This document shows, one piece after another, positions 14,291 to 32,000 of a stretch of DNA of 32,000 nucleotides. Made by a program: the position numbers and the translations under genes. Within the stretch, counting starts at the first letter, position 1. Every line of letters begins with the position of its first letter. The notes beneath the pieces are model-generated. The model did not search any database. It was given only the letters and a program-made list of their open reading frames with translations, and was not told the DNA's origin. The DNA is from an uncultured Alphaproteobacteria bacterium. Its GTDB lineage: Bacteria > Pseudomonadota > Alphaproteobacteria > Acetobacterales > Acetobacteraceae. Location: contig CAWEHU010000013.1 in assembly GCA_963808965.1 (NCBI GenBank), forward strand, positions 30,672 to 62,671. The letters are read 5' to 3'.

Positions 14291-14337
14291 GCCCGCCTCG
14301 CGCTTGACCTGCCCTGATGCCGAGGAAGAATACCGTA

Positions 14338-15039: not shown

Positions 15040-15052
15040 TGAGGACCGGGCG
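15027..15052. terminator. Weak hairpin between the convergent hisA/F-like gene and fae
   Basis: 7-bp stem CGCCCGG (15027-15033) / CCGGGCG (15046-15052) with a 12-nt loop. A-run on the plus side and T-run on the minus side, but not in canonical terminator geometry. It overlaps the stop codon at 15037-15039. Confidence 0.3.
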
Positions 15053-15064
15053 AAAAGTCGAGGC

Positions 15065-15574
15065 TCAGGAGGGAGAGAACGGGTGCTTCACCTGCTCGCG
15101 CTTCTGCACGACCTCGGAGGCGCTCGGCTCGCCGCGCACAGCCCGCGCGATCGACTCCTTGCAGGCTTGATAATTGTAGTCGTGGATTTTCTGATCGTCC
15201 GACGCTTCCCAGTGGATAAAGACGCCGACGCAAATGAAGATGTCGTCCGCCTCGTCCTGCGGGATGATGCCTTCGGCGACGCTGTCCGCGACTGCGCGCG
15301 CCACGGCGTGCTGGGCGGGGCCGAACATCTGCACGGCCTGCTTGGCGCCCTTGATCGTCACCTTGTTGAACAGCACGGTGTTCGGCTTGGTCGGCAAGTT
15401 CGGCGCGACCACGGCGAGCAAGGTGGTGAAGCCGTCCTTGTTGTTGGTGAGCGCGTGACAGAAGGCCGACTCCGCGGCGCTGCCCCGGGGACCCATGATG
15501 AGGTCGATATGCGCGACCTCGTTCCCATCGCCCACGAGCGACTCGCCGACACAGACCTTCGTGATGGTGGCCAT
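15065..15574 (-). CDS. fae: Formaldehyde-activating enzyme (5,6,7,8-tetrahydromethanopterin hydro-lyase)
   Basis: Track ORF 15065..15643 trimmed to [32 protein letters not shown]... (169 aa). It is near-colinear with the Methylobacterium Fae as I recall it ([32 protein letters not shown]). Confidence 0.97.
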
Positions 15575-15675
15575 GAACGTTCCCCTCTGTCCTTCACGCC
15601 TCGGTTCCGCCCGGCCGGCCGGCACAGGCGGATGCGGGGCCAATTAGTGCCTGCCGCGCTGGCGCGATCAATAGC

Positions 15676-16512
15676 TTAATCGCCCTTTCCGCACGCGCCG
15701 AGCCGCCAAGCCAGGATGGTGGCGACGGTTAGGTCCGCACTGGTACCCGGATTGATGTCGCACTCTTTGAGCCGCCGGTCCCAGTCGAGCAGCGCGGGCA
15801 GGCAGTCGGCCGGGTTCGTCGCGCCGTTCACCTGGTCGCGAACGCGCGCCGCCTCGCACTGGACCCGTTCGGCTATCTCCAGCCCATGCTTGCGTCGGAC
15901 ATGGCTGTCCGGGAAGGCGGCGAGGAAACCGAGATAAGCAGCGAGGGCAGCCCAGTCCGCCCGCCGCCAACGCGTCCGCGCGGCCTGGTAGCCATCCAGT
16001 CCGAGGCCAAACACGTCGGCAAAGTCCGTCGTCCATTGCCGGGCGATGCTGTCGCGATGAGCCGCCTCCCCCATCGCGACCGCGAGCGTGACTTGCGCGG
16101 GCGCGCGGATGTCGTGGCGCTCCGCATGGCCGAGCCCGCCCGGATCGGCCAGACGTATCGCGGCGAACACCGCCTCCGCATCCTTCAGGTCGGCGTTCGC
16201 CAGCACGCGGCGGAGCCTCACCCGGAGATCGGCCTCGCGCGCCTCGGCAGCCATGAGCAGCGGCGCCGAGAGGAGCACGATTCCGAGATTGGTGTTCTGC
16301 CCGACCGTGGCCCGGGTCGCCGCCACCGCATCGAAAATGCGCGCACCGAGCGCCGCGCCGGGCCGGCACAACGCCGAGGCCGCGGCTTCCGCGCTGCGCA
16401 CAAAATCCGCGACCGTCATGCCGTGCCCCTCGGCGTGCACATGCACATTGCCCGGTTTGGGTGCGGCAAGTTCCTCGGCGCAGGCACCGACGAACGCTTG
16501 TTCGAGCGTCAT
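15676..16512 (-). CDS. Triphosphoribosyl-dephospho-CoA synthase-like protein (CitG/MdcB family; H4MPT cluster)
   Basis: Track ORF, 278 aa: ELAAPKPGNVH...NTNLGIVLL...INPGTSADL, CitG-family motifs. ATGA overlap with the upstream RimK-like gene. Confidence 0.85.
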   Translation of the reverse strand: MTLEQAFVGACAEELAAPKPGNVHVHAEGHGMTVADFVRSAEAAASALCRPGAALGARIFDAVAATRATVGQNTNLGIVLLSAPLLMAAEAREADLRVRLRRVLANADLKDAEAVFAAIRLADPGGLGHAERHDIRAPAQVTLAVAMGEAAHRDSIARQWTTDFADVFGLGLDGYQAARTRWRRADWAALAAYLGFLAAFPDSHVRRKHGLEIAERVQCEAARVRDQVNGATNPADCLPALLDWDRRLKECDINPGTSADLTVATILAWRLGACGKGD

Positions 16513-17384
16513 TCCAGGCTGTCGAGCAGGGCGGTCGCGAGGCGCTCCGCGATGTCAACCGAGGTCACGCCTTGCAGGCCTCGCCAGCCCGCCATGCTGT
16601 TCACTTCGAGCACCAGTGCGCGACCGTCCGCGAGTCGTAGCAGATCGACGCCCGCGTGCCGTGCGCCAACGCAGGATGCAGCACGTAGGGCCAGATCGAC
16701 GAGATCCGGCGAGGGTTCCAGGGGACGCGGTTCTCCGCCGCGCCGCAGGTTCGTGACCCACTGCCCAGCCCGGCGCGTCATGGCCGCGATCACCGCGCCC
16801 GCGCAGACAAGCAATCGGTGATCCTCGAATGCGCCGTTCGCGGGAGGGACATAGCGTTGCAGGTAGTAAACGCCCGCGACGGTTTCGGGTGCGGGCAAAT
16901 CCTGGGGCCGGTGGATCAGTTGCAACCCGGTCCCCTGCGATCCGAACAACGGCTTCAGGACTAGCGGACCAAGCGGCGTCTCGCGCATCGCGATCTCGCG
17001 CGCCGCATCCAGGCCTTCCACCGTCCAGGTCGGCGGGGTCGGGATGCCCTGGGCGGCAAGGAGAAAGCTGGTCATCGACTTGTCCACGCATCGCTCGATC
17101 GCGCGTGCATCGTTCCACACCGGCACACCGCGTTCGCGCAGCGCGTGCAGGATTCCGAGTCTTCGCGTGACCTCCTCGAAGCTGCCGCCGCCGAGGGCGC
17201 GCACGAACACCGCATCCGGCAATGTATCGAAGCCGGGAATGCGGAGCCCGGCCGGGTGCTGCGTGTCGAAGGCGCAGCACGCGATTCGTGTCGTGATCGC
17301 CTTGGCGCCCAAAGCGGTGAAAGCGCGCAGCAGCACGCGCGCGTGCCAGTCGAAATCGTCGATGAACAGCCCGATGCGGCGCAA
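16509..17384 (-). CDS. RimK-like ATP-grasp ligase (candidate H4MPT:alpha-L-glutamate ligase)
   Basis: Track ORF, 291 aa: LVLKPLFGSQGTGL...YYLQRYV...GVDLL...LVLEVNSMAGWRGLQ. TTG start 3 nt after the mch stop. Confidence 0.85.
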   Translation of the reverse strand: MRRIGLFIDDFDWHARVLLRAFTALGAKAITTRIACCAFDTQHPAGLRIPGFDTLPDAVFVRALGGGSFEEVTRRLGILHALRERGVPVWNDARAIERCVDKSMTSFLLAAQGIPTPPTWTVEGLDAAREIAMRETPLGPLVLKPLFGSQGTGLQLIHRPQDLPAPETVAGVYYLQRYVPPANGAFEDHRLLVCAGAVIAAMTRRAGQWVTNLRRGGEPRPLEPSPDLVDLALRAASCVGARHAGVDLLRLADGRALVLEVNSMAGWRGLQGVTSVDIAERLATALLDSLE

Positions 17385-17387
17385 CTG

Positions 17388-18345
17388 CTATCCGAACGAG
17401 GCGTCGAGCAGCGCTGGATCGAGGCCGCCGGCGCGGAAGGTCTCGCCGCTTTCGAAGCTCGTCACGAGCGCCTCGGCGGGGCTGAACAGCATCGGATCGA
17501 TCGCGTAAAAATCGCCCTTGAAGGCCCGAAAGATCTCCCCGAAGGGCTTGCCGTAGTCGCGTGAGGTCGCGGCCGGAAGCTTCTCGGCCAAGTCTCGCGC
17601 GTCGGCAGCCGGGCCTGTGACGAACAGGTGCACGCGGCCGCCAAAGATGATCGCGTCGTTGGTGCGGCCCATCGCCGTGACAAAATCGGGATGCGGCGGG
17701 GGCAGGGGCGCCGCGCCCAGACCGTCGGCGATGCGCTCCAGCGGGAAATGGAGCTGGTGCGCCTTGTGCAGCGCCACTTCCAGCACACGCGCAACCACCT
17801 GCACGCTGCCCGCGAGGCTTTGGGTCGGCGCGTAGAGGATCGCGAGGTGCGCGGGTGAGACGCCGCAATCCGCGGCGATCTTCTCGATCAGCGGGGAAGG
17901 TGGCGGCTTCCCGCTCTCCAGCGACCAGCACCGCCTCCTGCGCCTGGTCCGCATAGCCAAGCTCCGCAAACAGCGGCTCCTTCCGCGCGAGCGCCCGTGC
18001 CGGTCCGGAGCCCAGGGCGAAAAACGCGCTCGGCTTCTCGCCATGAGCCAAGCTCCATCCGGCATATTGGCTGGCGAGGCAGGCGATAACCGGCTGCGAG
18101 GAGCTGATGGTGATGGTCCAGGGCCAACGCGGCAAGGCCGCATCAGTCGTGAGATGCGCCGATCCCAGCCCGCCCAGGCAGATCTCGGCGATACGCAAGC
18201 CGGCCGCGATACCCCCCGGATGCGCAGCCCCCGCATCGACCAGTGTAGCGCCTCCCGTGTCGGTCGACACGCCGACGCCCAGCTCGTCCGCGCGATCGAG
18301 GAGCGAGTCGAGCAAGCGTCGTGCGTTCGCGTTGACGCTGATCAT
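17388..18345 (-). pseudogene. mch: Methenyl-H4MPT cyclohydrolase, interrupted by one apparent +1 frameshift at about 17922
   Basis: The N-terminal 140 codons come from track ORF 16555..18345 ([16 protein letters not shown]...[14 protein letters not shown]...QYAGWSL...AQEAVLV). The C-terminus comes from ORF 17388..18236 ([21 protein letters not shown]...[26 protein letters not shown]...[13 protein letters not shown]...FSPAE). Skipping G17922 joins ..AVLV|LESGKPPP.., as in the Mch homologues I recall. The span is 958 nt, which is 3n+1. Confidence 0.9.
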
Positions 18346-19446
18346 ATCCCGACTCTCGCCAGAATTTCCGCCGCGCGGCTCCGAAGCTGCGCACGCGCCT
18401 GGTCCGCGTTGTCCGCCTCAGCGATCACCGTGCATAGCGGCGCATCTCTCGCGACCGGTTGGCCGGGCGGCTGCCGGTCCGCAGCCCAATCTGGCCAGAA
18501 GAAACCAGGCCTGAGGCGGAGCGCTGCGGGCGCATACACGACGGCAGCCGCCGCTGCGCGCTCGAACACTGGCGGACATGCGGCCAGCTCGCCGCGGCAG
18601 GCCTCGACATGAAGCCGGAACAGATCGGGATGACGGAAGAGGTCGAGCGTCGCGCCGGGCCGAGGATTGATCTCCAGCAGATCGAAACCCTCCGCGCCGC
18701 ACAAGGAAGTCCGCGCTGTTCAGACCGACGAGCCGCGTCTCTGGAACTATGCGCGCGACCGCGTCCGCCATCTCTCGAGGCCATCCGGGCCGACAACGTG
18801 GCCGGCCGCACCGCGCCGCCATACCGGAACGGATGGGCGGGTGTCGGGTCGGGCCATTGTTCGCTGAAGCCGAGCACGAGGGAGCGGTGTCCGTCGGCGA
18901 GGAACAGTGCGGAGACAGGCCTTCCTTCGGCGCGCTTTTGCAGATACCAGCCGCCCCGCTCGGCGAGAACCGGCTTTCTTGTCTGAACGTGAACGCCGCC
19001 CGATCCGCCACGCCGCTTCCAGAGCCAGCCAGTCTCGCGAGGCTCTTTCCACGCGATCTCGGGATGTGGGATGCCGAGCGTGCGGCAGAGCGCAGCGAAG
19101 TCGGCCGGAGCCTTCACACGCGCGATCGTGTCCGGCGTGTTGCCCAGCAGCGTGCGCCCGCGCGCCATCGCGGCGACCAGATTCGGACGGTCCTCGAAAC
19201 CGCTAGCCGTACACGATGCCCTCCACAGCCCGACCATCGGCCAGCCGGTCCAGCGCTTGCAATAGCGAAGCGCCCCGCGAATCCGCGCGAAAGGCTGCCG
19301 CGAACCTGGATGCTGTTCGCGGCAATTGCGCGCGTGTCCAGATCGCCGAACAAATCCGCGACAAGCGGAGCGTAGCCGGAGCGTCGCGCCGCGGCGGCGA
19401 GGGCGCGACCGGAGAGTGCGGCGATCAGCACCGCCGCGATCTTCAC
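18342..19446 (-). pseudogene. ATP-grasp protein of the H4MPT biosynthesis cluster, interrupted by four apparent +1 frameshifts
   Basis: The pieces lie in successive frames. 19446->~19275: (M)KIAAVLIAALSGRALAAAARRSGYAPLVADLFGDLDTRAIAANSIQVRGSLSRGFAG. ~19275->19205: ASLLQALDRLADGRAVEGIVYG. 19204->~18776: SGFEDRPNLVAAMARGRTLLGN...GGSGGVHV...PFRYGGAVRPATLSARMAS. ~18775->~18700: EMADAVARIVPETRLVGLNSADFLV. ~18700->18342: GAEGFDLLEINPRPGATLDLF...AEILARVGI*. The span is 1105 nt, which is 3x367+4. ATGA overlap with the mch start. Confidence 0.8.
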
Positions 19447-19455
19447 GCCAGCAGC

Positions 19456-20340
19456 TCACGCGCCAAGCGCGAACGCGTCGCGGAAATCGAAGCGCACCGG
19501 CTTCGTTGCTTCGATCATGCGGCGGAACAGGCCGAACTCGGTGCGGTATTTGATCTGGCCGATGGCCAGTGCGCCGATTCCGAGCGCTTTCGTTCCAGGC
19601 AGCGTGGCTTTGTCCGCCATCACGTCCAGCCCCTCCACGCCGGCGGGGGGGACGGCGTTCACGTCGGCGACTACGCGGAGACCGGACGCCTGACGCAGCT
19701 CGTCGGCGCTCAGGACCTGCACGCCTGCCCTCGCTGCGCAGAACGCGGCTTCGGCGTCCCGCAGCAGCGCGGCTTTCATCGCGCCGGTGCTCGCGTCCGC
19801 CGAACGCACGTTCACGCCGAAGCGCTTGCCGATCTCATCGGCGGCACGCGCCACGCGCTCCGGTCCGTCATGCCCGGCCAGCACCACTTGCGCGCCTTCC
19901 AATGCGGCGATCACGCCGGATGCGAAGCCGACCACACCCGTCGCCCCGAACACGACGACCTTCAGCCCGTCGAGGCCCCGCGCACCTTCGTCCCGCAGCA
20001 GCTTCTCGGTCCTGGCGACCATCGCCGCCGCCGTGGTGAAGGAACCGGACGGATCGGCGAAGAGCGAAATGACGAAGGGCGGCACCATCGCCTGCTTCGC
20101 CGCGTCCAGCATGTCGAGTGCCAGGATCGCGTCCTTGCCGCCGATGAACACGCCAGTTTTCACACCGTCCTTCGGGGGGCGCGAAAAGATCGCATCCTGC
20201 ACCAATCCCTGCACGTCCTGCCGCGCGACATCGCAATAGGGCAGCACCGCGTCGAAGCCGGCGTCCAACGCCATGTTCGCATCGAACGGGCTGACGTGCT
20301 TGAGCGGACTAAGCATGTGCAGGATGTGCTTGTCCGCCAT
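19456..20340 (-). CDS. mtdB: NAD(P)-dependent methylene-H4MPT dehydrogenase
   Basis: Track ORF, 294 aa, intact. ILHMLSPLKHVSPFDANMALDAGFD...IFSRPPKDGVKTGVFIGGKD...ADPSGSFTTAAAMVA...DVNAVPPAG...FDFRDAF is colinear with MtdB as I recall it. Confidence 0.92.
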   Translation of the reverse strand: MADKHILHMLSPLKHVSPFDANMALDAGFDAVLPYCDVARQDVQGLVQDAIFSRPPKDGVKTGVFIGGKDAILALDMLDAAKQAMVPPFVISLFADPSGSFTTAAAMVARTEKLLRDEGARGLDGLKVVVFGATGVVGFASGVIAALEGAQVVLAGHDGPERVARAADEIGKRFGVNVRSADASTGAMKAALLRDAEAAFCAARAGVQVLSADELRQASGLRVVADVNAVPPAGVEGLDVMADKATLPGTKALGIGALAIGQIKYRTEFGLFRRMIEATKPVRFDFRDAFALGA

Positions 20341-20362
20341 GGCGCCCGTCTCCTTCTCCCTC

Positions 20363-21313
20363 TTATCGGCCTGGCCGCATCATCACGGACGCTCCGCGAT
20401 TCAGCGCCTTGCAGACGCTGATGTCCAGACCCCCGACCCGCTCGCGTAGCGAGGTCGCTATCCGCTCGGCTTCCGCCTCGCCGCGCAGGAAAGCGAAGCC
20501 GGACGGTCCCCACGAACTTTGGCCGATCCCGGTCGCTCCTGCCGCGCGTGCGTGATCGAGCGCGGCGGCGACGCGCGGGCTGGTGAAGCGCGCACCCTGC
20601 GCGGGCGCGAAATGGTCTCCGGCGATGGCTTGCACCTCCGTCACCGCGGCCCCGAACGTTTCGAGATCGTCCTCGGCGAGCGCCGGTAACGCCTGCATCA
20701 GCACGAGCCTGCAAATGCGGGACGAAAGCCGGTCCGGAAGTGGCGCGAGCGCGGCGAAGGCCGCAATCTCCTCCGGCCCGGACAGCCCCTCATGAGCAGG
20801 GTCTTGCAGCAGCAGGATGCGCCAGTCATCCGGCACGGCCAAGCGGGAGAGCAGCGGTGGCGCACGCTCGCCCCCGCGCCCGCCGTCAACGACGAAGCCG
20901 CCTTGCTGGAACAGAAAGATGCCGATGCCCGAGCGATGGCCCCGCCCCAGCACCCGCGCATCCTCGCCGGGGTTCGCAGGCAATCCGTGCAGGCGGCGCA
21001 GGGCGGCGGCGATCCCGAGCGCGAGTTGCGTGCCCGATCCGAGTCCAGCATGCGCGCGGGATCGAGGACAGGACTGTCAGCGCGTGGCCGCCCCTGATGC
21101 CGAGATGCGCGGCGATAGCGGCGAGATAGGCGGCGGCGCGCGGGCTTCGGCGCCCTGCACGCGGTCTCGTTCGCGCGGCTGAGCCGGAGACGCGTTTCGG
21201 GCCTGTCGAGGGCATAGTCCGATGCTGCCGAACCGACGCCCGAGCGTGAAGCTGAGGTCGAGGAAGCCCAGGTGCAGCCGCGCGGTACACGCGACCTCGA
21301 CGGCTTCATCCAT
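20363..21313 (-). pseudogene. mptG: Beta-ribofuranosylaminobenzene 5'-phosphate (RFAP) synthase, interrupted by at least three frame changes
   Basis: N-terminus from ATG 21313: MDEAVEVACTARLHLGFLDLSFTLGRRFGSIGL (GHMP-like RFAP-synthase start). The next frame gives ALDRPETRLRLSRANETA. The next gives ..AAAYLAAIAAHLGIRGGHALTVLSSIP. The original frame then resumes with AHAGLGSGTQLALGIAAALRRLHGLPANPGEDARVLGRGHRSGIGIFLFQQGGFVVDGG... to the stop at 20363 (track ORF 20363..20983). Breaks lie at about 21214, within 21129-21162, and at about 21053-21057. Confidence 0.8.
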
Positions 21314-21426
21314 CGCGAGAGGATCGCCAGGCCGGCGGGCGGATGCCCGGCGGGTTCCGCGTTGCCTGGAGCATGATTTATGATCCACACTCGGTTGGCC
21401 GAGCGCAACCCCAGGGAGGCAAGCGC

Positions 21427-21810
21427 ATGACCGAGCGGCAGCCGGAGCACGCCTATTCCGAGCCCGAGATCGAAGCCCATCTGAAGCAGCATCTGCCGCA
21501 TTGGCGATTGGAGCGCGGCTGGATCCGGCGCACCTATCGCACGCACGGTTGGAAAGGCACGCTGATGGTCATCAACGCGGTCGGACATCTGGCCGAAGCC
21601 GCGTGGCACCATCCCGATATCACCGCCTCCTACGCCTGGGTGGAGGTTCGCCTCATGACGCACACCGCGAAGGGAATAACCGACAAGGATTATCAGCTCG
21701 CCGCGAAGATCGAGGAGGTAATTCAATGGCAGCCGGGCAAAGAGGGCGGCGCACTGGAAGGCACGCCAGCTAAGGACCCGCGCTTCGCCTACATCAAGTA
21801 CGACGATTGA
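21427..21810 (+). CDS. Pterin-4a-carbinolamine dehydratase (PCD/DCoH)-like protein
   Basis: Track ORF 21343..21810 trimmed to ATG 21427, with a GGGAGG RBS 7 nt upstream. ..HWRLERGWIRRTYRTHGWKGTLMVINAVGHLAEAAWHHPDITASYAWVEVRLMTH.. is the PCD core motif (E..HHPD). 127 aa. Confidence 0.85.
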   Translation: MTERQPEHAYSEPEIEAHLKQHLPHWRLERGWIRRTYRTHGWKGTLMVINAVGHLAEAAWHHPDITASYAWVEVRLMTHTAKGITDKDYQLAAKIEEVIQWQPGKEGGALEGTPAKDPRFAYIKYDD

Positions 21811-22898
21811 GCGACGCGGTTTCCGTCCGGGGTCGGCCTGCCTCGCTGGACGAAGGAGTAAGCGAAGCCGCGGCGATCCTCCGCCGCAGCCGTTGCGCGG
21901 TTATCGCCGGTGCCGGCACTGATGTGGCGGGGGCGGAGGCGGCGGTCTCGCTCGCCCGGGCCGTGGATGGCGTGTTCGATCACCTGCACGCCGACGGGGT
22001 GCTGCGCGATCTTGAAGTGATGGGCCAGGCGGGATGGATCGTCACGACGCCCTCGCAGGCGTGCGCGCGGGCGGATCTTGTTCTGCTGGTCGGATCAGGA
22101 TTGGACTCGGCTTGGCCGGGCTTCGTCGCGCGGCTTCGGCTGAATGGGCCGCCGCCGCTGCACCCGGACCGCTCGCGCCGAGTGATCCGGCTCTGTCCGG
22201 GAGAGGACGGGTTCGCGGGCGAGGCCGCCACCATCGGGGGAGAGCCGCGCGAGCTGCCGATCCTGCTTGGGGTCTTGCGTGCGCTTTGCGCCGGACGACC
22301 GCCGCGGGATGATGCGCCATTGCTGGGACAACTGAGAGACTGCGCACGCGCGCTCCAGGATGCGCGGTATGGAGTCGCGCTGTGGAGCGCCGAGCGACTC
22401 GATCCGCTCGCGATCGAGATGCTGTGCGGGCTCATCGACGATCTCAACGCGAGCACGCGCTTCGCCGGGCTGCCCGTGCCGGGGCCGGGGAACGCAATGG
22501 GTATCGCACAGGCGAGCGCATGGGCGAGCGGATTTCCGTTCCGGACTTCCTTCGCCCGGCAACAGCCCGCGCATGATTCCTGGCGCTTCGATGCGAGGCG
22601 CATGGTGGAGAGCGGGGAGGCGGACGCGGCGGTGTGGATCGCCGCTCTCGATCCCGCTGCGCCACCCTGGCGGCGGGCGCTTCCCACGATCGCGCTGGTT
22701 GCGCGCGATACCAGTTTTGCGTCATCGCCGGAGGTGCTTATCACCGTCGGCCGGCCGGGTCTCGACCATCCGGCCGTCCTGTTCGAGCAGGATCTCGGCG
22801 GGCTTGTGGCCAAGCAAGCGGCGGCAGCCAGCGCCGTACCCACGGTGGCGCACGTCGTGGGGCGGATCATTGAGGCGCTGGGAGCCGATCCGTGCTGA
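21807..22898 (+). CDS. fhcB: Formyltransferase/hydrolase complex subunit B (FwdB/FmdB homologue)
   Basis: Track ORF, 363 aa, TTG start in a TTGA overlap with the PCD stop. It sits at the head of the fhcB-A-D-C order, and length and composition fit FhcB. The call rests mostly on context plus general similarity recalled from memory. Confidence 0.8.
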   Translation: MSDAVSVRGRPASLDEGVSEAAAILRRSRCAVIAGAGTDVAGAEAAVSLARAVDGVFDHLHADGVLRDLEVMGQAGWIVTTPSQACARADLVLLVGSGLDSAWPGFVARLRLNGPPPLHPDRSRRVIRLCPGEDGFAGEAATIGGEPRELPILLGVLRALCAGRPPRDDAPLLGQLRDCARALQDARYGVALWSAERLDPLAIEMLCGLIDDLNASTRFAGLPVPGPGNAMGIAQASAWASGFPFRTSFARQQPAHDSWRFDARRMVESGEADAAVWIAALDPAAPPWRRALPTIALVARDTSFASSPEVLITVGRPGLDHPAVLFEQDLGGLVAKQAAAASAVPTVAHVVGRIIEALGADPC

Positions 22899-24507
22899 CC
22901 GTGCTACGGGGCGGGCGGATCATCGACCCGACCGAAGGCCGCGACGAACAAGGCGACCTCTGGTTCGAGAATGACCGTATCGTCCCGCCGCCAGCGGACG
23001 GTCGGAGGCCTGACACGGAGCACGATGTTTCCGGTGCCGTCGTGCTGGCGGGCGGGATCGACATCCATTCGCATATCGCGGGCACCAACGTGAACACGGC
23101 CCGTCTGCTCCTGCCGGAGCTACGCGCCGGCGGCGCATTGGAGGCCGTGCCGGTGGTAGAGGAGATCGGCCGGCTTTACATTGCCATGGGTTTTACCACG
23201 GTGGTCGAGCCCGCCATCACGCCGCACAATGCGTTGCAGGCTCATCTGGAGCTCGCGCAAATCCCGTTCATCGACACCGCGATCCTGACGGTTCTCGGCA
23301 ACGAGGACTATCTGCTGGAGCTGCTGCGAATCGAAAGAGAGCGCGTCTGCGATCGCCGACTACGCCGGGCGGATGCTCGCGGGCAGCAAGGGGCTTGGAC
23401 TGAAAGTTATCAACGCGGGTGGCTCCGCGGCCTTCAAGGAGAACGCGCGCAGCTTCGGGCTCGATGACGTCGTACCGCAATACGGCGTCAGCTCTCGTGC
23501 CATCGTGCGCGCGGTGCAGGAAGCCCGGGCCATTCTAGGCGTCCCGCATCCGGTGCATCTCCACTGCAACAATCTGGGGATTCCCGGCAACGTCGAGACC
23601 GCGCTCGCCACGATCGACCAGCTCGGCGACTTGCCGCTGCATCTCGCGCATCTGCAATTTTACGCCTACGGCACCGAGGGAGCGCGCGGCTTCTCCTCGG
23701 CCGCCCCTCGTCTTGCGGAGGCCGTCAAGGCGAACCCAAATGTTACCGCCGATGTCGGGCAGGTGATGTTTGGGCAAACGGTCACGATCTCATGCGACTT
23801 GATCCGCCAGTTCAACGGCCGCGCGCAGGCGCATCCCCGGAAATCCGTCATCATGGACGGTGACGGCAACGGCGGCGGCGTGGTGCCGTACCGGTATCGC
23901 CGCACCAGTTTCTTCAATGCGGTGCAATGGGCGGCGGGGCTCGAGCTGTTTCTGCTCATCGACGATCCGTGGCGGCTCTTCTTCACGACGGACCACCCGA
24001 ACGGCGCGCCGTTCACCGCATACCCGGATTTGTTTGCTCTGCTGATGAGCCGCGCGCTGCGTGAGCAGTGGATCGGGACGGTTCCGGCGGATGCGATGCA
24101 GGTTTGCGTCCTGCCTTCCCTTGCGAGGGAATATACGTGGCCCGAGATCGCGACCATGACGCGAGCCGCACCGGCCCGCCTGCTCGGGCTCGCGGATCGC
24201 GGCCATCTCGCACCGGGCGGACGCGCCGACATCGCGGTGTACCGGCCCGCAGCCCGACCTTGCCGCGACGTTCCGCCACGCGGCGTTGGTGTTCAAGGAT
24301 GGACGGCTCGTCGTCCGTGACGGGCGGGCGATCGAGCGGGTCCTGGGCCGTGCGCTCGCGATCGAGCCGGGATTCGACGCGGCGGCCGACCGGCGGCTCG
24401 CGGGGTGGTACGATCGGCTCTACGGAATCCCGCATACCGCCTTCGATGTGCCTGCGGACGCCACCGGCCGCGCCCTGCCGTTCGAGACGGTGCCATGCCG
24501 GGGTTGA
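22892..24507 (+). pseudogene. fhcA: Formyltransferase/hydrolase complex subunit A (FwdA-like amidohydrolase), interrupted by two apparent +1 frameshifts
   Basis: Three track ORFs lie in successive frames. 22892..23467 is credible to ..ILTVLGNEDYLLELL and includes GGIDIHSHI, the amidohydrolase metal motif. 23373..24320 carries upstream in-frame ESKESASAIADYAGR and then MLAGSKGLGLKVINAGG...HLHCNNLG...TTDHPNG... to ..ADIAVYRP. 24286..24507 continues QPDLAATFRHAALVFKDGRLVVRDG...FETVPCRG*. Breaks lie at about 23325-23340 and about 24246-24249 (CCC run). The span is 1616 nt, which is 3n+2. Confidence 0.88.
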
Positions 24508-25403
24508 TCAGGAACGGCGTCGCAGTCGACGACACTTTCGCCGAGGCGTTCGACATGCGGGCGACCGCGCTGGTGCTTACGGCCGGCACGTCGCACTGGG
24601 CGCGGCAGGCGGCCGTGACGATGACGGGGTTTGCCACCTCAATCATCGGCTGCGGCGTTGAAGCGGCGATCGATGGAGAGGTGGCCGAGAACGAGACCCC
24701 GGATGGCCGTCCGGGCGTGCGCGTCCTGCTATTCGCCGCCTCGACGGGCGAGTTGCAGAAACAGTTGCTGGCGCGCGTCGGCCAATGCGTTCTCACCTGC
24801 CACGATACGGCCTGCTACGCGGGACTCGAAGGCTCGGAGCCGCTTCGGCTTGGCGACGGACTGCGCTATTTCGGCGACGGCTGGCAAATCTCGAAGCGGC
24901 TCGCCGGTCGTCGCTATTGGCGCATCCCGGTGATGGATGGCGAGTTCGTTTGCGAAAGCACGACGGGATTGACAAAGAGCGCGGTCGGCGGCGGCAACCT
25001 CATCCTCCTGGGCCGCAGCACTGAGGCCGCCCGGCGCGCGGCCGAAGCGGCGGTGGCGGCGATCGGTGGCGTCCCGCACGCGATCACGCCGTTTCCCGGC
25101 GGTATCGCCCGATCCGGCTCGAAGATCGGTTCGAAATACAAGGCGCTCATGGCATCGACGAACGATGCGTTCTGCCCGACGCTGCGAGGAGTCGTGCAAT
25201 CCGCGCTCGATCCGGACGTGGAGGCGGTGCTGGAAATCGTCATCGACGGCCTAAGCCACGGCGCAGTTGAGGCGGCGATGCGGGAGGGACTCGCAGCCGC
25301 GGTCGCGCTCGGGCCGGAGCAGGGGGCCGCGCGGATTACCGCCGGGAATTATGGCGGCAAGCTGGGCCGGCATCATTTCCACTTGTCGCAACTGCTGCCA
25401 TGA
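24495..25403 (+). CDS. fhcD: Formylmethanofuran:H4MPT formyltransferase (Fhc complex subunit D)
   Basis: Track ORF 24405..25403 trimmed to ATG 24495, which overlaps the fhcA end. MPGLIRNGVAVDDTFAEAF.M.AT...MTGFATS.I.CGVEA...TPDGRPGV...RYWRIPVMDGEF...PFPGG..RSGSK.GSKYKAL.ASTNDAFCPTL...ITAGNYGGKLG is colinear with Ftr/FhcD. Confidence 0.93.
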   Translation: MPGLIRNGVAVDDTFAEAFDMRATALVLTAGTSHWARQAAVTMTGFATSIIGCGVEAAIDGEVAENETPDGRPGVRVLLFAASTGELQKQLLARVGQCVLTCHDTACYAGLEGSEPLRLGDGLRYFGDGWQISKRLAGRRYWRIPVMDGEFVCESTTGLTKSAVGGGNLILLGRSTEAARRAAEAAVAAIGGVPHAITPFPGGIARSGSKIGSKYKALMASTNDAFCPTLRGVVQSALDPDVEAVLEIVIDGLSHGAVEAAMREGLAAAVALGPEQGAARITAGNYGGKLGRHHFHLSQLLP

Positions 25404-26215
25404 CCGCGCTCCGCTTCGTGCTGCGGTTTCCACCTCCGATGCGGCTCGATCTGTCGCCGCTGATTCCGGAGCGCCTGGCCAGAATGGAGGCGAGCGCGAT
25501 CGATCGGATCGAGCTCGGCTCGGCTCGGGCCAGCGTGCGCGTCGGCGACGTGTTCCGTTTGCAAACGGGCGAGGCCTCGCGCGTGACGATCGAAGGCGGA
25601 TCGGAACGGTTCGACTTTCTCGGTGCCGAAATGAGCAGCGGCGAAGTGCTGCTGGATGGAGAGGCGGGCTATGCGGCGGGCAGGAGGATGGCCGGCGGGC
25701 GGCTCGAAATCCGAGGTGACGCCGGCGGTTGGGCCGGATCGGGACTGCGCGGCGGGACGGTGGAGATTTGGGGCGATGCGGGCGCGATGCTGGGGGCACC
25801 GTTCGCCGGGGAACGCGCCGGAATGGCCGGCGGCACGCTGATCGTGCGGGGAGGGGCAGGCGAGCGGGCGGGCGACCGGATGCGACGCGGCCTGATAATC
25901 ATCGAAGGGGCGGCCGGTGTTTGCGTGGGAAGTCGAATGCTGGCCGGCACGCTGGTCGTGTGCGGGGCCGCTGGGGCCATGCCCGGCTACCTGATGCGGC
26001 GCGGCACCCTGTTACTCGGGCTCGCCGCCCCGTTGCCGACTTTCGTGCCGACCGGAAATGTCGCCGCTTCGTTCCGAGGGCTTCTGGCCGGTGCTCTCGC
26101 CCGGTTCAGTTGGCCGGCTGCCCAACTCGCGGCTACCGCCGCGGAGCGGTACCTTGGAGACGTGGCGACGCTTGGGAAAGGCGAGATGGTCCTGGGGACG
26201 ACCGAGGCAGCCTGA
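25400..26215 (+). CDS. fhcC: Formyltransferase/hydrolase complex subunit C (FwdC-like beta-helix)
   Basis: Track ORF, 271 aa. ATGA overlap with the fhcD stop. Repeated G-rich beta-helix rungs (GGRLEIRGDAGGWAG, GGTVEIWGDAGAMLG, GGTLIVRGGAGERAG, RGLIIIEGAAG, GTLVVCGAAG). Confidence 0.9.
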   Translation: MTALRFVLRFPPPMRLDLSPLIPERLARMEASAIDRIELGSARASVRVGDVFRLQTGEASRVTIEGGSERFDFLGAEMSSGEVLLDGEAGYAAGRRMAGGRLEIRGDAGGWAGSGLRGGTVEIWGDAGAMLGAPFAGERAGMAGGTLIVRGGAGERAGDRMRRGLIIIEGAAGVCVGSRMLAGTLVVCGAAGAMPGYLMRRGTLLLGLAAPLPTFVPTGNVAASFRGLLAGALARFSWPAAQLAATAAERYLGDVATLGKGEMVLGTTEAA

Positions 26216-27694: not shown

Positions 27695-28303
27695 TCAGAA
27701 CCGGCGACGTGAGGGGGTGATCAGATTTCCGTCGCGGCCGACAAGATTGCCGTCCCGCCCAACGAGATTTCCATCGCGCCCGACAAGATCGGAGCGGCTG
27801 CTCATACCCCCGGTCATGTTGTTGTCGGCGTTGACCTCGTCGGCCAGCAGAACGTCGCTGAGCCAGCCGATCGTGATGTCGATCCGTACTGCGACATCGA
27901 GCTGATCCGCCGGCCACACGCGGACTTCTTTCGAGAACACCGCGTCCTTGAACTCGACGCCCATCTTGCTGAGCGTGATCGCGTCCTCATACCCGGCCAC
28001 GACCTCCTCTCCCTCGCCGTAGACCAGGAATACGGCGGGGGTCGACATCTTGTAGTAATTGCCCTGGTAGCTGAACCCGTAGATGCGGGCGAGCTTCTTC
28101 TCTTTGTCCAGCTCACTCTCCTTGCCAGCCTGGTTACGGAGAGCGGCAATCAGCGGATTGCTCGAAAACTTGTTCAGACCGAGATCTTTGATCTCAAGGC
28201 CGCCGAAGAGCCTGCCGAATAGTCTCACGGTGGCAGGAGCGAATAGGCCTTCGCCCAAAGGATCGGCATCTTTCTTTCCGCCCGTGGTGTCGTCGGATGC
28301 CAT
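27695..28303 (-). CDS. Hypothetical 202-aa protein with a C-terminal (LVGRDGN)x3 tandem heptapeptide array
   Basis: Track ORF. Strong AGGGAGGAA RBS about 10 nt upstream of ATG 28303. No signal peptide. Protein-like central region (ARIYGFSYQGNYYKMSTPAVFLVYGEGEEVVAGYEDAITLSKMGVEFKDAVFSKEVRVWPADQLDVAVRIDITIGW). The C-terminus reads SSRSD-LVGRDGN-LVGRDGN-LVGRDGN-LITPSRRRF*. Confidence 0.8.
   Translation of the reverse strand: MASDDTTGGKKDADPLGEGLFAPATVRLFGRLFGGLEIKDLGLNKFSSNPLIAALRNQAGKESELDKEKKLARIYGFSYQGNYYKMSTPAVFLVYGEGEEVVAGYEDAITLSKMGVEFKDAVFSKEVRVWPADQLDVAVRIDITIGWLSDVLLADEVNADNNMTGGMSSRSDLVGRDGNLVGRDGNLVGRDGNLITPSRRRF
27725..27787 (-). repeat. Three tandem 21-nt coding repeats (heptapeptide LVGRDGN) differing only at synonymous third positions
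   Basis: Read on the coding strand: CTT GTC GGG CGC GAT GGA AAT / CTC GTT GGG CGG GAC GGC AAT / CTT GTC GGC CGC GAC GGA AAT. Pairwise differences are 5, 2 and 5 nt, and all are synonymous. Confidence 0.9.
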
Positions 28304-28375
28304 GGTCGGCGTTCCTCCCTTTCACAACCACCTTGCTCGACGAAAGTTACAGCGACGGAAAGTCTCACGCCACTA

Positions 28376-29788
28376 TCATCCAACGGGCGCGGTCTCGGGC
28401 GTGGACCGATGATCGTGCGGCATCAACCGGCGCGCGATTAGGAATGCGCGTGGCGAACACGAACAGGCGTTGACCGGCTTGGCGCCGAGCGGCTCGCGGA
28501 AGCGCAGCGCTATCGGGCGCTTGTCGAACCGCCGCGGTGCGGGTGCCGGGACCTCGCCTGTCAGCAACGGCCGCGGGTCGATCCCGCGCCACAGGAAATG
28601 GCCGAGCAGCGCCGGCAGGTTCGGGCCTTGGCCAAGCCGGGCGGCGGCCTCCAGGAACTTCGCCGCGACCGCGTCGAAGCTCAAGCTCTCCGGCGGAATC
28701 GTCAGCATCACATGCGCCATGCACCGCCCCACGAGGTCGCGCGCGGCTGCGAGCGAGGCATGGAAGCCCTGCGTGAACCGGGCGAATGAGCGTGCCAACT
28801 CGTGGCGCACCATGCGCAAAGAGGCTGCCACCTCCTCGCGGGTCCAGCCGCGAGCGTCGGCGTCGGGAGGGATCAGCCCGCGTGCGACCAGCCCGTCCTG
28901 GTAGATTTCGACGAAAATGTCGAAAATCGCGCCGGTCAGCGGCTCGGCCAATGCGTGCGCGTTGCGATCGAGCCCGAGCGGGTCGATCCACTCGCCGTCG
29001 GGACCGAGCCTCAATCCCCCGACGTCGGCCATCGTCACGGTATTGGAGGCGAGCCGCACCTGCTCCTTGTCGGAATATTCCCCCAGCCGGTTGACCAGGT
29101 TCAGCACGTAGAGATTGCCGTCGGTCTGTTGCAGGAGGCGTTGCACCACTGAGGGAAAGTGCAGGGCTGCGATCAGCGAGACGAGGTCGGCAAATAACTC
29201 GTGGAAGGCGAGATAAGGGCCGTGAATCCGGTCCGGCGGCGGTGCGCCGACCTGCGAGAACAGGATGGCGTGTCCGGTTTCATGCGCGATCACATCGAAG
29301 TTTAGGCAGAAGAGCTGGCCGCGCCCGTAGCGATTGGCGATGATCCCCGCCTCCAGGAAGCCGGGACCGCAATGCGCGTTGCGCCAGCGCACCACCGGTA
29401 TCAACTCGAGCTGCGGCAGGAAGCTTGCGTGCCACCAGACGACCTGTCGCCGGAGATACAATTCCCAAACATCTAGCGTGTGTCGCATGGTGCCGTAGAG
29501 ATGTGCGGCAAGGAATTGCTCGGTGTCGACCGGAATGTAGTCGAAGTTTCCGCAACGATCCGGCAGGGCGGGCGCGAACATCGTGCCCCGATACGGCGGC
29601 ATGTAGGCGGGCGGGTCGTATTGGCTCTCCTTGTCCACTGCGTTCGCGACGTACATCGTCGCGTCCGAGGGTCCTGGACCGATCGTGCCGGCCCGGCGTG
29701 ACACGAGCACGAGCTCGGGCTCGGCATAGCCCTCCGCGTATTGCGGAAAAAGCCGGAACCCGGTCCCGTCCGGCCGGTGCCTGATCAT
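28376..29788 (-). CDS. Thermolysin-like (gluzincin) HExxH...E metalloprotease-family protein, no signal peptide
   Basis: Track ORF, 470 aa. FDVIAHETGHAILFSQVG is followed 23 residues later by AFHELFADLVS, which resembles the thermolysin HExxH...NExxSD arrangement. The ATG forms an ATGA overlap with the tfuA stop (29785-29788). Confidence 0.8.
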   Translation of the reverse strand: MIRHRPDGTGFRLFPQYAEGYAEPELVLVSRRAGTIGPGPSDATMYVANAVDKESQYDPPAYMPPYRGTMFAPALPDRCGNFDYIPVDTEQFLAAHLYGTMRHTLDVWELYLRRQVVWWHASFLPQLELIPVVRWRNAHCGPGFLEAGIIANRYGRGQLFCLNFDVIAHETGHAILFSQVGAPPPDRIHGPYLAFHELFADLVSLIAALHFPSVVQRLLQQTDGNLYVLNLVNRLGEYSDKEQVRLASNTVTMADVGGLRLGPDGEWIDPLGLDRNAHALAEPLTGAIFDIFVEIYQDGLVARGLIPPDADARGWTREEVAASLRMVRHELARSFARFTQGFHASLAAARDLVGRCMAHVMLTIPPESLSFDAVAAKFLEAAARLGQGPNLPALLGHFLWRGIDPRPLLTGEVPAPAPRRFDKRPIALRFREPLGAKPVNACSCSPRAFLIARRLMPHDHRSTPETAPVG

Positions 29789-31161
29789 CGTTCCCCTTCT
29801 CCGGCCGCCTCTGCTGCGGTCGGGTCAGTCTGCGTCATGTACAGATATTCGCGCCACACCGCCGTTTCCCAGGCGGCAGCACTGGGCCAGCCTTGCTCGC
29901 CGAGATGCGCGTTCAGCGATCGCGGCCGGGGGCGGCCCAGGCAAGTCTCGAAATACCAATCGAGCGCGGCGTCGAGTAGCGGTCCGTCGGGCGGCCGCCG
30001 AGCAGCCTTGATTGGCGCGAGAGCCGTCCGCTTGGCCTGAGCCCGCCGATGCAGGGCCGCAAAGCCTCCGGTTAGCCGCAAATGATCGAGCAACGCGGCG
30101 CGGAAGCCTGGCGGCTTCTCCCGGGCTGCACGCGCGAGCGCGGCCTCGCGCCGAAGGAGTGCCGCAAGCCCCGCTTCGTCTAGCGCATTCTCCGCGAGCC
30201 AGGCAGTCAGTTGTTCTCGCTGCCAAAGGCCGCGGGCGCGGCGGAAGCAATCGAGCTGCCGTCGAAGCTCCGCGTCGGAGACTGTCTCCGGTGCTGAAGC
30301 GGAAGCATCGAGCCGGCCGGTCACGGCACGCTCGCACATGCGCCAGGCATCCGGCTGGAGACGCAGTTCCTCCAGCACCGCGGACCCCTCCTCCGTATCC
30401 GGGTCCCCATCTTGGACCGAGGCGGTCCATCGCTCCCAGACCAAGGCACGCTCGAAACGGAAATCTGCCCGGAATGGAGCGGGCCGCTCGCGCAAGAAGG
30501 CCGTGAGAGCCCGTAGCATCGCCAGCGCATCGAGCCGCTTGCGCGCCACCCGTCCCGTCCGCAGCCATCCGGCGAAGGCGCGGGTGCCGTCGTTGCCGAG
30601 AATCTCCGGAGCGGCATCCGCCAGGCGCGTGAAACTGCGTTCTGAGAAGTGCAGGCACTTCATCCTCGCCGAAAGCGTGTCGCGCTGGGCGCGGGTCAGC
30701 AAGCCGGCCGCCTCCGCCGTCAGCAGCGTCTCGCGCAGATCGACCATCGCGTCGGAGAACGCCACGCTGCCTGCTGGGGCCGGCGCATGGATCACGGCGA
30801 CTTCGTCGTCATCCTCGAACGGCTCGTCGTAGCCGGGCCACTTTCCGTCGCGATAGGCTTCGTAGATCCGTCCGACGCCGCGCATCCCGAAACGGTCCAG
30901 TTCCGCGGCGCGCAGCGCGCCCATGCTCGCCCCGCCGAATACATGTACGCCCTCCGAAAGCGCCCAGAGGATTTCCCGGTGCCAGACGGAGGGGACGTCG
31001 AGGAACGCCCCGTCGATCAGGCCGATCGCCACCGGCCGATACGTCCTGACAGCGTGGAATAGGTCTCCTTGGCGGGCGGGGGGCAGGAAGAGGGCGTCGC
31101 TCTCACGCTCGGCCTCGTGCCGCGAGAGGCTGGGTCCGAGAAACACGACGGCGCTTACCAT
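29785..31161 (-). CDS. tfuA: TfuA-like protein with a ~230-aa C-terminal extension
   Basis: Track ORF, 458 aa. MVSAVVFLGPSL...PPARQGDLFHAV..RPVAIGLIDGAFLDVPSVWHREILWALSEGVHVFGGASMGALRAAELDRFGMRGVGRIY is the TfuA domain pattern. The start overlaps the ycaO stop (ATGGTAA, 31155-31161). Confidence 0.88.
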   Translation of the reverse strand: MVSAVVFLGPSLSRHEAERESDALFLPPARQGDLFHAVRTYRPVAIGLIDGAFLDVPSVWHREILWALSEGVHVFGGASMGALRAAELDRFGMRGVGRIYEAYRDGKWPGYDEPFEDDDEVAVIHAPAPAGSVAFSDAMVDLRETLLTAEAAGLLTRAQRDTLSARMKCLHFSERSFTRLADAAPEILGNDGTRAFAGWLRTGRVARKRLDALAMLRALTAFLRERPAPFRADFRFERALVWERWTASVQDGDPDTEEGSAVLEELRLQPDAWRMCERAVTGRLDASASAPETVSDAELRRQLDCFRRARGLWQREQLTAWLAENALDEAGLAALLRREAALARAAREKPPGFRAALLDHLRLTGGFAALHRRAQAKRTALAPIKAARRPPDGPLLDAALDWYFETCLGRPRPRSLNAHLGEQGWPSAAAWETAVWREYLYMTQTDPTAAEAAGEGER

Positions 31162-32000
31162 GCGCGGCTCGCCGCCCGGTGCGCGCGGGGGCCGGGCGTG
31201 TACTCGCCGCCGGGTGGCGTCCAGGGGCCTTCCAGCCCCGGCACGATCGCACGTCCGACCGGAACCCCGAACATCGGCCGGGTCAGATCGACCCAGGCGA
31301 CCTGCGGCATTCCGGCCTCGCGCAGCAGCGAAAGCGCCGTTTGCAGGTCTTCTCTGAGGGTCGCCCCGGCCCGACAGGGTGTCCCGTGGAAGTCCCGCGA
31401 GGCCGGGCCGCTCAGGAGATTACGAGCCGCCTCCTGGCGGTCCGCGTGAAGGGAATCGAGATAGCCTTGCTCGGCGAGGTCGTCGCGCGCCCCCGAAATG
31501 ACGGTCAGCCGTGCCTGTGCTGCCTCGGTGAGCGCGCGGGCGAGCGCCACATCCCGGTCGGGATGGCAACCGGAGCCAAGTTCCGGCTGTACCCGATCCC
31601 GTCCGGGAGCGGAGGCGGCAAGGCACAGATAAGCGGGCAATCCGATATCGGATGTAACATCCCAAATTCTGATGCGGACCGCGGCGGCGGCGAACATCGG
31701 CAGCAGCGCCGCGCTGATGCGGCCGTCGATGCTGGCGAGATCCAACACGCGCGCCTGCCGGGCCACTGCGGGGCCGGCGTGCCACAGCGCGACCGCATCG
31801 CGCTCCACCACTTCGCAGATTCCGTGCAGTGCAGCCTCGAGCCAATGATTGCCGGATGCGAGCCCGTTCGTGGTCGCCTGAAAGACCGGCGTGGAGCCGA
31901 TTTGCGACGACGCCGTATAGTCCGCGGTCACGACCTCATGCGGAACCCACAGCGGCTCGCCTGTCGCGAGATCGCGGCCCTCCAGCCACAGCAGCCGGCG
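31155..32000 (-). CDS. ycaO: YcaO-domain protein (3' part; gene continues past the right edge)
   Basis: Track ORF 31155..31931 extends in frame to the window edge. My translation of 32000->31932 gives RRLLWLEGRDLATGEPLWVPHEV. TTNGLASGNHWLEAALHGICEVVERDAVALW is the YcaO core pattern (SNG.A.G....EA...G..E..ERDA). It lies immediately upstream of tfuA. Confidence 0.9.
   Translation of the reverse strand, partial: RRLLWLEGRDLATGEPLWVPHEVVTADYTASSQIGSTPVFQATTNGLASGNHWLEAALHGICEVVERDAVALWHAGPAVARQARVLDLASIDGRISAALLPMFAAAAVRIRIWDVTSDIGLPAYLCLAASAPGRDRVQPELGSGCHPDRDVALARALTEAAQARLTVISGARDDLAEQGYLDSLHADRQEAARNLLSGPASRDFHGTPCRAGATLREDLQTALSLLREAGMPQVAWVDLTRPMFGVPVGRAIVPGLEGPWTPPGGEYTPGPRAHRAASRAW

Follow-up and report, generated by a model that had tools for sequence, protein, structure and literature searches.

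Evidence that a tandem-repeat protein encoded beside YcaO and TfuA genes in Acetobacteraceae is probably a multi-core peptide precursor

INTRODUCTION

What might a bacterium make from a protein that ends in perfect copies of a single heptapeptide? The question is raised by a 32,000-nucleotide stretch of DNA (here called the window) from an uncultured alphaproteobacterium of the Acetobacteraceae (contig CAWEHU010000013.1), in which one gene encodes a protein with three consecutive LVGRDGN units at its C terminus. This protein was designated REP (repeat protein). Its gene lies on the minus strand in the order YcaO (cut at the window end), TfuA-like protein, a 470-amino-acid protein with an HETGH motif, REP, and a Peptidase_Mx protein with a zinc ribbon. 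An earlier note, made from this sequence alone, had read the array either as the cores of a ribosomally synthesized and posttranslationally modified peptide (RiPP) of the thiovarsolin type or as a recognition or cleavage module for the flanking proteases. The REP finding exposes one part of a five-gene module that is widespread and so far undescribed, and REP itself is probably a multi-core, long-leader precursor whose units would be thioamidated by YcaO and TfuA and released by a protease.

RESULTS AND DISCUSSION

The tandem units are conserved as peptides

The translated C terminus of REP reads ...MSSRSD-LVGRDGN-LVGRDGN-LVGRDGN-LITPSRRRF. Recomputation reproduced exactly what the earlier note had described: the three units differ at 5, 2 and 5 nucleotide positions pairwise, all 12 differences are synonymous and fall in codon position 3, and the array leads into the tail LITPSRRRF. 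Variation affects six of the unit's seven codons, and the probability that six variable sites would all be silent is ~4e-4, with 27.5% of sites being synonymous. Tandem Repeats Finder reported the array as the top repeat of the window (21-nt period x3.2 at 27723-27789, score 92). The REP frame is a real gene, because it has homologues (115 by word-index search and 583 clusters at 50% identity by exhaustive hidden Markov model [HMM] search) and because GGGAGG, which resembles a Shine-Dalgarno sequence, precedes its ATG. A 62-amino-acid open reading frame (ORF) on the plus strand (27717-27905), which reads RFPSRPT three times, was rejected as a mirror artefact of the repeat and not a gene.

The array is short and lies in a disordered C-terminal region; in the AlphaFold2 (AF2) model of REP the predicted local distance difference test score (pLDDT) falls in the linker between domain and array and is <50 in the array itself. 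It might be supposed, then, that the array does nothing by itself, whether it is a chance low-complexity linker or arose through recent slippage of the DNA. The purely synonymous differences between the units in the window speak against this, as does the divergence across the family. Codon-by-codon comparison of intra-array units at 80 loci gave proportions of synonymous and nonsynonymous differences of pS = 0.65 and pN = 0.067, with degenerate edge units included. Arrays of 6 x GRSDLV at four loci (L012, L014, L020 and L021) had 35-58 synonymous versus 0 nonsynonymous pair differences. Furthermore, arrays are found in essentially all full-length members of the ~580 clusters. Because intra-array divergence is nearly saturated at synonymous sites with almost no amino acid change, the units are old duplicates that selection has kept identical at the protein level and not the result of recent slippage, as the earlier note had argued. 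A functionless array can be given almost no weight.

Units differ between lineages but share a common grammar

Homologues of REP share a conserved N-terminal domain of ~150 residues followed by a hypervariable C-terminal array. Essentially all full-length homologues end in such an array, which has 2-9 copies of a 4-9-residue unit; the unit varies by lineage, being near-identical inside one protein and unlike across lineages. Period-7 units include VGRDGNL, VGRDSGL, VGRDGSL, VGRDGM-, SGAEARI and SGMMARS; period-6 units include VGRADL, VGRSDL, VGRAGM, SRADLS and SRGKMA; and period-5 units include VSGAK, VSGAR, GMNAR, GANVR, GAHAR and GGKVG, as well as GANAR. Periods of 4, 8 or 9 occur in few arrays, and some family members appear single-copy. 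The earlier note had asked whether repeat number varies while the heptad is conserved. Copy number does vary, from 2 to 6 for an unchanged DGNLVGR-type unit, but the heptad is not kept across lineages, where the unit is hypervariable. A unit that is homogeneous within proteins and hypervariable between them behaves as RiPP cores usually do.

The first and last units of the arrays are degenerate. Homologues end in tails such as GRSRR, GRGR and PSRRR, and the Rhodobacteraceae type ends in RGSGD; the basic tail pointed out in the window is not a universal feature.

Unit composition was tallied over 208 arrays with at least three copies (3-9 copies each), which represent 94 distinct consensus units. 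Exactly one Arg or Lys per unit was found in 200 of the 208 arrays. Gly, Ala or Ser precedes the basic residue in 79 of 91 distinct units, with Gly the commonest residue before Arg, and L, I, V, M or F is present in 89/94 units. The single basic residue with its preceding small residue appears to form a shared unit grammar, which fits an enzyme recognition site.

A conserved leader-like domain joined to a multi-copy core that is hypervariable among lineages and homogeneous within each protein is, as far as comparison of sequences can tell, the signature of a multi-core RiPP-type precursor, and REP is likely to be a ribosomal precursor of a previously undescribed family. Literature searches that combined TfuA/YcaO with cyclase, repeats, Ruegeria, Acetobacteraceae, metalloprotease or TPR returned no description of the module. 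RiPPER considers only ORFs of 20-120 amino acids in seemingly noncoding regions, which would explain why a family of 200-residue proteins annotated as "hypothetical protein" has been overlooked.

REP is encoded in a module with YcaO, TfuA, a protease and a nucleotide cyclase

A survey of genomes and metagenomes covered 82 distinct related loci, with hosts among the Acetobacteraceae (including Acidisphaera, Acidisoma and Rhodopila), Kiloniellaceae/Pelagibius, Skermanella, Ruegeria, Leisingera, Cribrihabitans and two Solirubrobacterales. Carriers available in culture include Acidisphaera sp. L21, Pelagibius marinus NBU2595, Skermanella stibiiresistens SB22 and Ruegeria atlantica. YcaO, TfuA, the 470-amino-acid protease and REP occur together in 75 of the 82 loci, and contig-edge truncation accounts for four of the other seven. 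A class III nucleotide cyclase is encoded in 79/82 loci; the three loci without one are edge-truncated. By analogy with known systems, the retention of the YcaO/TfuA link lends support to the multi-core, thiovarsolin-type reading proposed earlier. The suggestion that proteases on both sides of REP might be involved was upheld for one of them: the upstream protease, which has a thermolysin fold, belongs to the system, whereas the downstream Peptidase_Mx protein is confined to this genome lineage (the window and the near-identical contig L085), is absent from the other related loci, and was rejected as a module member.

Genes past the window end were read from contig L085, which was reached via the cluster sibling P0236. 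In this contig the full YcaO protein has 427 amino acids, and directly upstream of its gene lies a gene (1925-5278, plus strand in locus orientation) for a 1117-amino-acid protein with SAM, class III cyclase and AAA_16 domains. This shows the predicted cyclase gene of the window's own lineage to lie just past the window end.

The YcaO and TfuA genes overlap by a few bases, and the pair is adjacent in all complete loci. The C-terminal extension of the TfuA-like protein (~280 amino acids, residues ~180-458; 29785-30620, minus strand) matched no Pfam family and had a weak NCBIfam match to TIGR04500, "putative peptide maturation system protein." In a partial Mantel test of unit divergence against the proteins, all five genes co-diversified, with a slight excess for TfuA. 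Because the TfuA distance had the strongest residual correlation with repeat-unit divergence, it is possible that the extension might be a substrate-docking part.

Two loci from different metagenome samples (L003 and L004) encode an identical 197-amino-acid REP, and L004 carries a natural deletion that has removed YcaO and TfuA and truncated the protease gene, with the cyclase-AAA_16 and REP genes kept. The complete module is also present in two metagenome-assembled genomes of Solirubrobacterales (L041 and L051, with units GMMVGR and GQLVGR). Since these are two actinobacterial genomes among otherwise alphaproteobacterial hosts, horizontal transfer is suggested.

A thermolysin-fold protease and a leader-like domain accompany the array

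The HETGH motif of the protease comprises residues 169-173 (29270-29284 of the window). Residues H169, E170, H173 and E197 are invariant in 30 protease sequences; E197, the third ligand, lies within HELFAD, an instance of an HE(S/L)F(S/A)D motif that resembles the third-ligand motif of thermolysin. The homologues (n = 445, 54-66% identity) are unannotated except for one UniRef label, "Peptidase M4 family." The AF2 model (pLDDT 83; predicted template modeling score [pTM] 0.88) was compared to the Protein Data Bank (PDB) with Foldseek, and the top 26 matches were all M4/M36 peptidases, with probability 1.0, E values down to 1.5e-4 and template modeling (TM) scores of up to 0.64 on the target at a sequence identity of ~12%. 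No Pfam family matched the protease at E <= 0.1, which places it outside the Pfam M4 models, and a sequence search of the PDB gave nothing meaningful.

The N-terminal domain of REP contains the motifs ARIYGFSYxGNYYK and MWxxDxLDxxVRIDITxGW, and residues G30, L36, Y75, G81, G98, W130, D136, R140 and G146 are invariant (alignment A1). The AF2 model is confident over residues 20-150 and has an alpha/beta fold. Pfam, NCBIfam and PADLOC scans assigned REP to no family, sequence and profile searches with the N-terminal domain found no PDB match, and Foldseek found no match of the model in the PDB (best E value, 0.9). A well-known family with incidental tails, which the earlier note had named as a ground for refutation, was not found. 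The positions of REP, its parts and the adjoining genes are given in Table 1.

Table 1. Positions of REP, its parts and adjoining genes in the window
Feature	Position	Strand	Basis or detail
REP gene (putative multi-core precursor)	27695..28303	-	ORF and translation; 202 amino acids plus stop
Conserved N-terminal domain of REP, ~residues 15-160; proposed leader/docking	27824..28261	-	Alignment, AF2 model
Linker between domain and array, NADNNMTGGMSSRSD; with semi-conserved NN-x-TGG motif	27788..27832	-	C-terminal listings, alignment
Three tandem 21-nt units, each LVGRDGN; putative core peptides; residues 173-193	27725..27787	-	Units at 27787-27767, 27766-27746 and 27745-27725
Degenerate fourth unit plus basic tail LITPSRRRF	27698..27724	-	Translation
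Shine-Dalgarno-like GGGAGG, 10 nt 5' of REP ATG	28314..28319	-	Read from sequence
Zinc metallopeptidase, thermolysin fold, predicted cytoplasmic; 470 amino acids	28376..29788	-	Invariant residues, AF2 and Foldseek
Long TfuA-like protein, 458 amino acids; TfuA domain at residues 50-176	29785..31161	-	PF07812, E 1.7e-40
YcaO gene, C-terminal part only; runs off window end	31155..32000	-	PF02624, E 2e-56; tblastn 31179-32000
Peptidase_Mx with N-terminal zinc ribbon, 354 amino acids	26546..27610	-	PF15887, PF10005; 84 nt downstream of REP

Proposed processing of REP

In the proposed mechanism, the folded N-terminal domain (~150 residues) would be a leader or a docking domain, and the disordered tail would carry the core copies, here 3 x LVGRDGN. 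YcaO, through ATP-dependent activation of the backbone amide, and TfuA, through sulfur delivery, would install one thioamide per unit, with an expected mass shift of +15.977 Da per site (computed). The likeliest site would be the carbonyl of the Gly, Ala or Ser ahead of the single Arg or Lys of the unit, because of the precedents of the Pro-Arg thioamide in thiovarsolin and the thioglycine in McrA. Chemistry of the azoline type, as carried out by YcaO proteins of thiazole/oxazole-modified microcins (TOMM) and linear azole-containing peptides (LAP), was considered and seems unlikely: none of the 94 distinct units contains Cys, 33/94 have neither Ser nor Thr, and LVGRDGN has none of the three. 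Backbone thioamidation is the preferred assignment because Cys is absent and Ser/Thr are often absent from the units.

Thermolysin-type enzymes cleave before hydrophobic residues, and because nearly every unit contains a hydrophobic residue, the cytoplasmic thermolysin-fold protease could cut between units and free several copies of a thioamidated peptide of 5-7 residues. The peptide released in this organism would be LVGRDGN or a register variant of it, with a computed [M+H]+ of 730.384 (746.361 if singly thioamidated); a register with Arg as the last residue would fit the array edges equally well. The cyclase, fused to a STAND ATPase/TPR-like sensor or to TPR alone, would couple the system to cyclic AMP (cAMP) or cyclic GMP (cGMP), through either peptide sensing or control of the system.

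Several points weigh against REP as a cleaved, thioamidated precursor. A folded leader of ~165 amino acids is far above the usual leader size, as the earlier note had already remarked, and the N-terminal domain could serve some separate function. Neither YcaO nor TfuA reaches the curated cutoff of any named NCBIfam equivalog; their best NCBIfam matches are the McrA-glycine thioamidation pair (TIGR03266 and NF033432), with 136.5 bits versus a cutoff of 365 for YcaO, of which only the partial gene was scored, and 181.7 versus 235.2 bits for TfuA. The module has no conserved gene for export or immunity and no conserved Opp genes, and none of its five proteins has a signal peptide or transmembrane (TM) segment. 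A natural product secreted from the cell can therefore not be taken for granted. Leisingera sp. JC1 and ANG-M7 (L055 and L056) have intact REP and cyclase-TPR genes with no YcaO, TfuA or protease nearby: the 10 kb upstream hold none of the three genes, which either lie in another part of these genomes or are not needed by the REP-cyclase pair. Finally, the thioamidation, the modified site and the cleavage register are all inferences. At the two Leisingera loci, around 9.5-13 kb, REP carries 7 x VSGAK under purifying selection, and the cyclase-TPR and GNAT genes are kept.

The lack of an exporter and the predicted cytoplasmic location of all module proteins would also suit a different outcome, in which the repeats are modified but not separated. 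In this case the whole tail would be a single product, or REP would be an intact substrate, and the protease would make a single cut, to take off the N-terminal domain, or none. This would yield a periodic, cationic peptide (~30-45 residues) with multiple thioamides, or else a modified protein that serves, for example, as a metal binder or as the ligand of the STAND/TPR sensor. The degenerate edge units and distinct tail could mark the ends of one such product, McrA offers a precedent for a protein substrate of YcaO/TfuA, and several thioamides occur in one peptide in the thioamitides. However, copy number is free to vary (2-9) among close relatives with one and the same unit, which is not expected for a product of defined length, and the exact identity of units despite near-saturated synonymous divergence fits separately used units better. 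The members that appear single-copy also count against it. An undivided tail thus seems unlikely, although it deserves to be weighed alongside the release of separate units.

The nucleotide cyclase and a possible signaling role

The cyclase occurs in two architectures. In 42 loci a SAM-cyclase-AAA_16 protein of ~1100 amino acids is encoded upstream of YcaO, and its C-terminal region has sub-threshold TPR/MalT-TPR matches. In 37 loci a cyclase-TPR protein of ~640 amino acids (TPR_1, E 3.6e-15) is encoded directly after REP. A GNAT acetyltransferase gene lies beside the cyclase-TPR gene in 32 of these 37 loci, which are of the Rhodobacteraceae type (e.g., L048:12381-13025, minus strand). Thiovarsolins are N-acetylated, and by analogy the GNAT protein could provide a dedicated N-acetylation step. 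A regulator of the Crp family (cNMP_binding and HTH_Crp_2 domains) has its gene beside or close to the module in seven loci (e.g., L001:8573-9304, minus strand), which hints at a read-out of the cyclic nucleotide (cNMP) signal of the cyclase.

The near-constant presence of a cyclase, in two architectures, might alternatively mean that REP acts as a sentinel or regulatory substrate within a signaling or defense system centered on the cyclase. The array would then be a multi-site cleavage or recognition module, a possibility also raised in the earlier note; its processing, whether by the module's own thermolysin-like protease or a foreign one, would turn the STAND/TPR cyclase on or off, and YcaO and TfuA would tune protease sensitivity through thioamides. 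The persistence of the REP-cyclase pair with no enzymes nearby in the two Leisingera strains, which shows how closely REP is tied to the cyclase, would suit such a system, as would the adjacent Crp-type cNMP-binding regulator in seven loci. The cyclase domain also matched Pycsar cyclase models in PADLOC, but it was the only part of the module to do so, and these matches appear to reflect generic class III homology. REP, protease, TfuA and YcaO had no match to a defense family in PADLOC, a conserved effector such as a nuclease or pore is lacking, the loci lie on chromosomes among varied housekeeping genes, and the partial Mantel test gave no specific signal of co-variation between the units and the cyclase sensor region. 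A sentinel role seems distinctly unlikely.

Thioamidated peptides of 5-7 residues, released in several copies from REP, could themselves be ligands of the TPR/STAND cyclase sensor, so that their production or accumulation would be turned into a cAMP/cGMP signal read, for example, by Crp-type regulators; the five genes would then be sufficient for the whole circuit. This is a tentative idea that we consider improbable as it stands. If it were true, such a peptide-to-second-messenger circuit would make a RiPP the cognate signal of a cyclase receptor, a type of signaling not described so far.

Other genes in the window

The region from 8786 to 26215 contains a block of C1 genes linked to tetrahydromethanopterin (H4MPT) and methanofuran, including 4-(hydroxymethyl)-2-furancarboxaldehyde phosphate (4-HFC-P) synthase fused to FolB (8786-10168), MCH cyclohydrolase (16555-18345) and an Mpt_N dehydrogenase (19456-20340). 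ORFs at ~21.8-26.2 kb resemble a formyltransferase/hydrolase complex, and FTR and amidohydrolase families are found in the L085 counterpart. The block points to an alphaproteobacterium of the methylotroph type. Its adjacency to YcaO/TfuA was judged not to be meaningful, as it is not conserved at other loci. A fused SoxY-SoxZ sulfur-carrier protein of 274 amino acids is encoded at 1642-2466 on the plus strand.

Significance

YcaO-TfuA clusters are very numerous in Proteobacteria, and every characterized thioamidated RiPP made by this enzyme pair is actinobacterial (PMC8120280). The REP family would provide the substrate for a widespread group of these clusters, found in soil Acetobacteraceae, marine Kiloniellaceae and Ruegeria/Leisingera. 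It would also add a thermolysin-fold protease dedicated to a RiPP, a leader-type domain of a new kind and a RiPP-like pathway strictly linked to a nucleotide cyclase sensor. The family is probably the sign of a new class of modified peptides in bacteria, maybe tied to second-messenger signaling, and a possible signaling role of small thioamidated peptides becomes directly testable.

Comparison with known systems

The best-scoring named families for both enzymes belong to the McrA thioglycine system (TIGR03266 and NF033432), in which the modified residue is a Gly in a full-length protein. The hosts considered here are bacteria without McrA, and the substrate would be a dedicated repeat protein. 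Because the YcaO and TfuA scores are below the cutoffs, the pair is not the McrA thioglycine equivalog.

The module protease shares with thermolysin (M4) and fungalysin (M36) the fold and an HExxH motif followed by Glu in an ExF(S/A)D-like motif. It differs from both in that it has no signal peptide or propeptide, is predicted to be cytoplasmic and has an extra helical C-terminal region.

The pairing of a TPR or TPR-like sensor gene with a neighboring gene that would yield peptides of 5-7 residues recalls RRNPP signaling and sensors of the STAND/MalT type. Unlike in RRNPP systems, the putative pro-peptide REP has no signal peptide, and the output is a nucleotide cyclase rather than a helix-turn-helix (HTH) or phosphatase domain.

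Long-leader precursors of the nitrile hydratase leader peptide (NHLP)/Nif11 type, together with proteusins, reportedly have a large conserved N-terminal region before a variable core, as described by Haft et al. in 2010. REP has no sequence or Pfam relationship to these precursors, and its N-terminal domain is longer, with no detectable homologue among known families.

In having one leader, several cores, a hypervariable core sequence and variable copy number, REP is similar to multi-core RiPP precursors such as those of the PatE type in cyanobactins and those of ustiloxin and phomopsin in fungi. The cores of cyanobactins, ustiloxins and phomopsins are flanked by explicit signals for recognition or cleavage, and subtilisin-like or Kex2 proteases process them, whereas REP units abut and the protease is thermolysin-like. 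A comparison with multi-core RiPP precursors was also made for thiovarsolin (PMC6511847).

The closest likeness is to thiovarsolin itself. In the thiovarsolin system of Streptomyces varsoviensis, VarA, VarY and VarT suffice to make thioamidated peptides from a precursor with repeats, the thioamide is on the residue that precedes Arg, and the precursor family ranges from nonrepeating members to five repeats (PMC6511847). The REP module similarly has a YcaO-TfuA pair beside a putative repeating-core precursor, a variable number of repeats and an Arg in each repeat. VarA, however, is a short peptide with imperfect APR/GPR repeats, whereas REP has a folded domain of ~150 amino acids and perfect repeats; Pro-Arg is not found in LVGRDGN or in the commonest consensus units listed, and Pro is not among the residues tallied before Arg or Lys. 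The thiovarsolin cluster has no dedicated protease, in contrast to the conserved thermolysin-fold protease and nucleotide cyclase sensor of the REP module, and its hosts are Actinobacteria, whereas those of the REP module are mainly Alphaproteobacteria.

By sequence, the parts that define a YcaO-TfuA RiPP cluster are present: a YcaO domain, an adjacent TfuA, and a co-encoded putative precursor whose leader is conserved and whose core varies. The module is set apart by its large folded leader domain, perfect head-to-tail units, cytoplasmic M4-like protease and obligatory cyclase-STAND/TPR partner, none of which was found described in the searchable literature. Because it has no A/G-P-R core, and because the VarO heme-oxygenase-like, ATP-grasp ligase and amidinotransferase genes of thiovarsolin are absent from it, the module is not a member of the thiovarsolin family, yet it appears to work most like thiovarsolin and other multi-core RiPPs.

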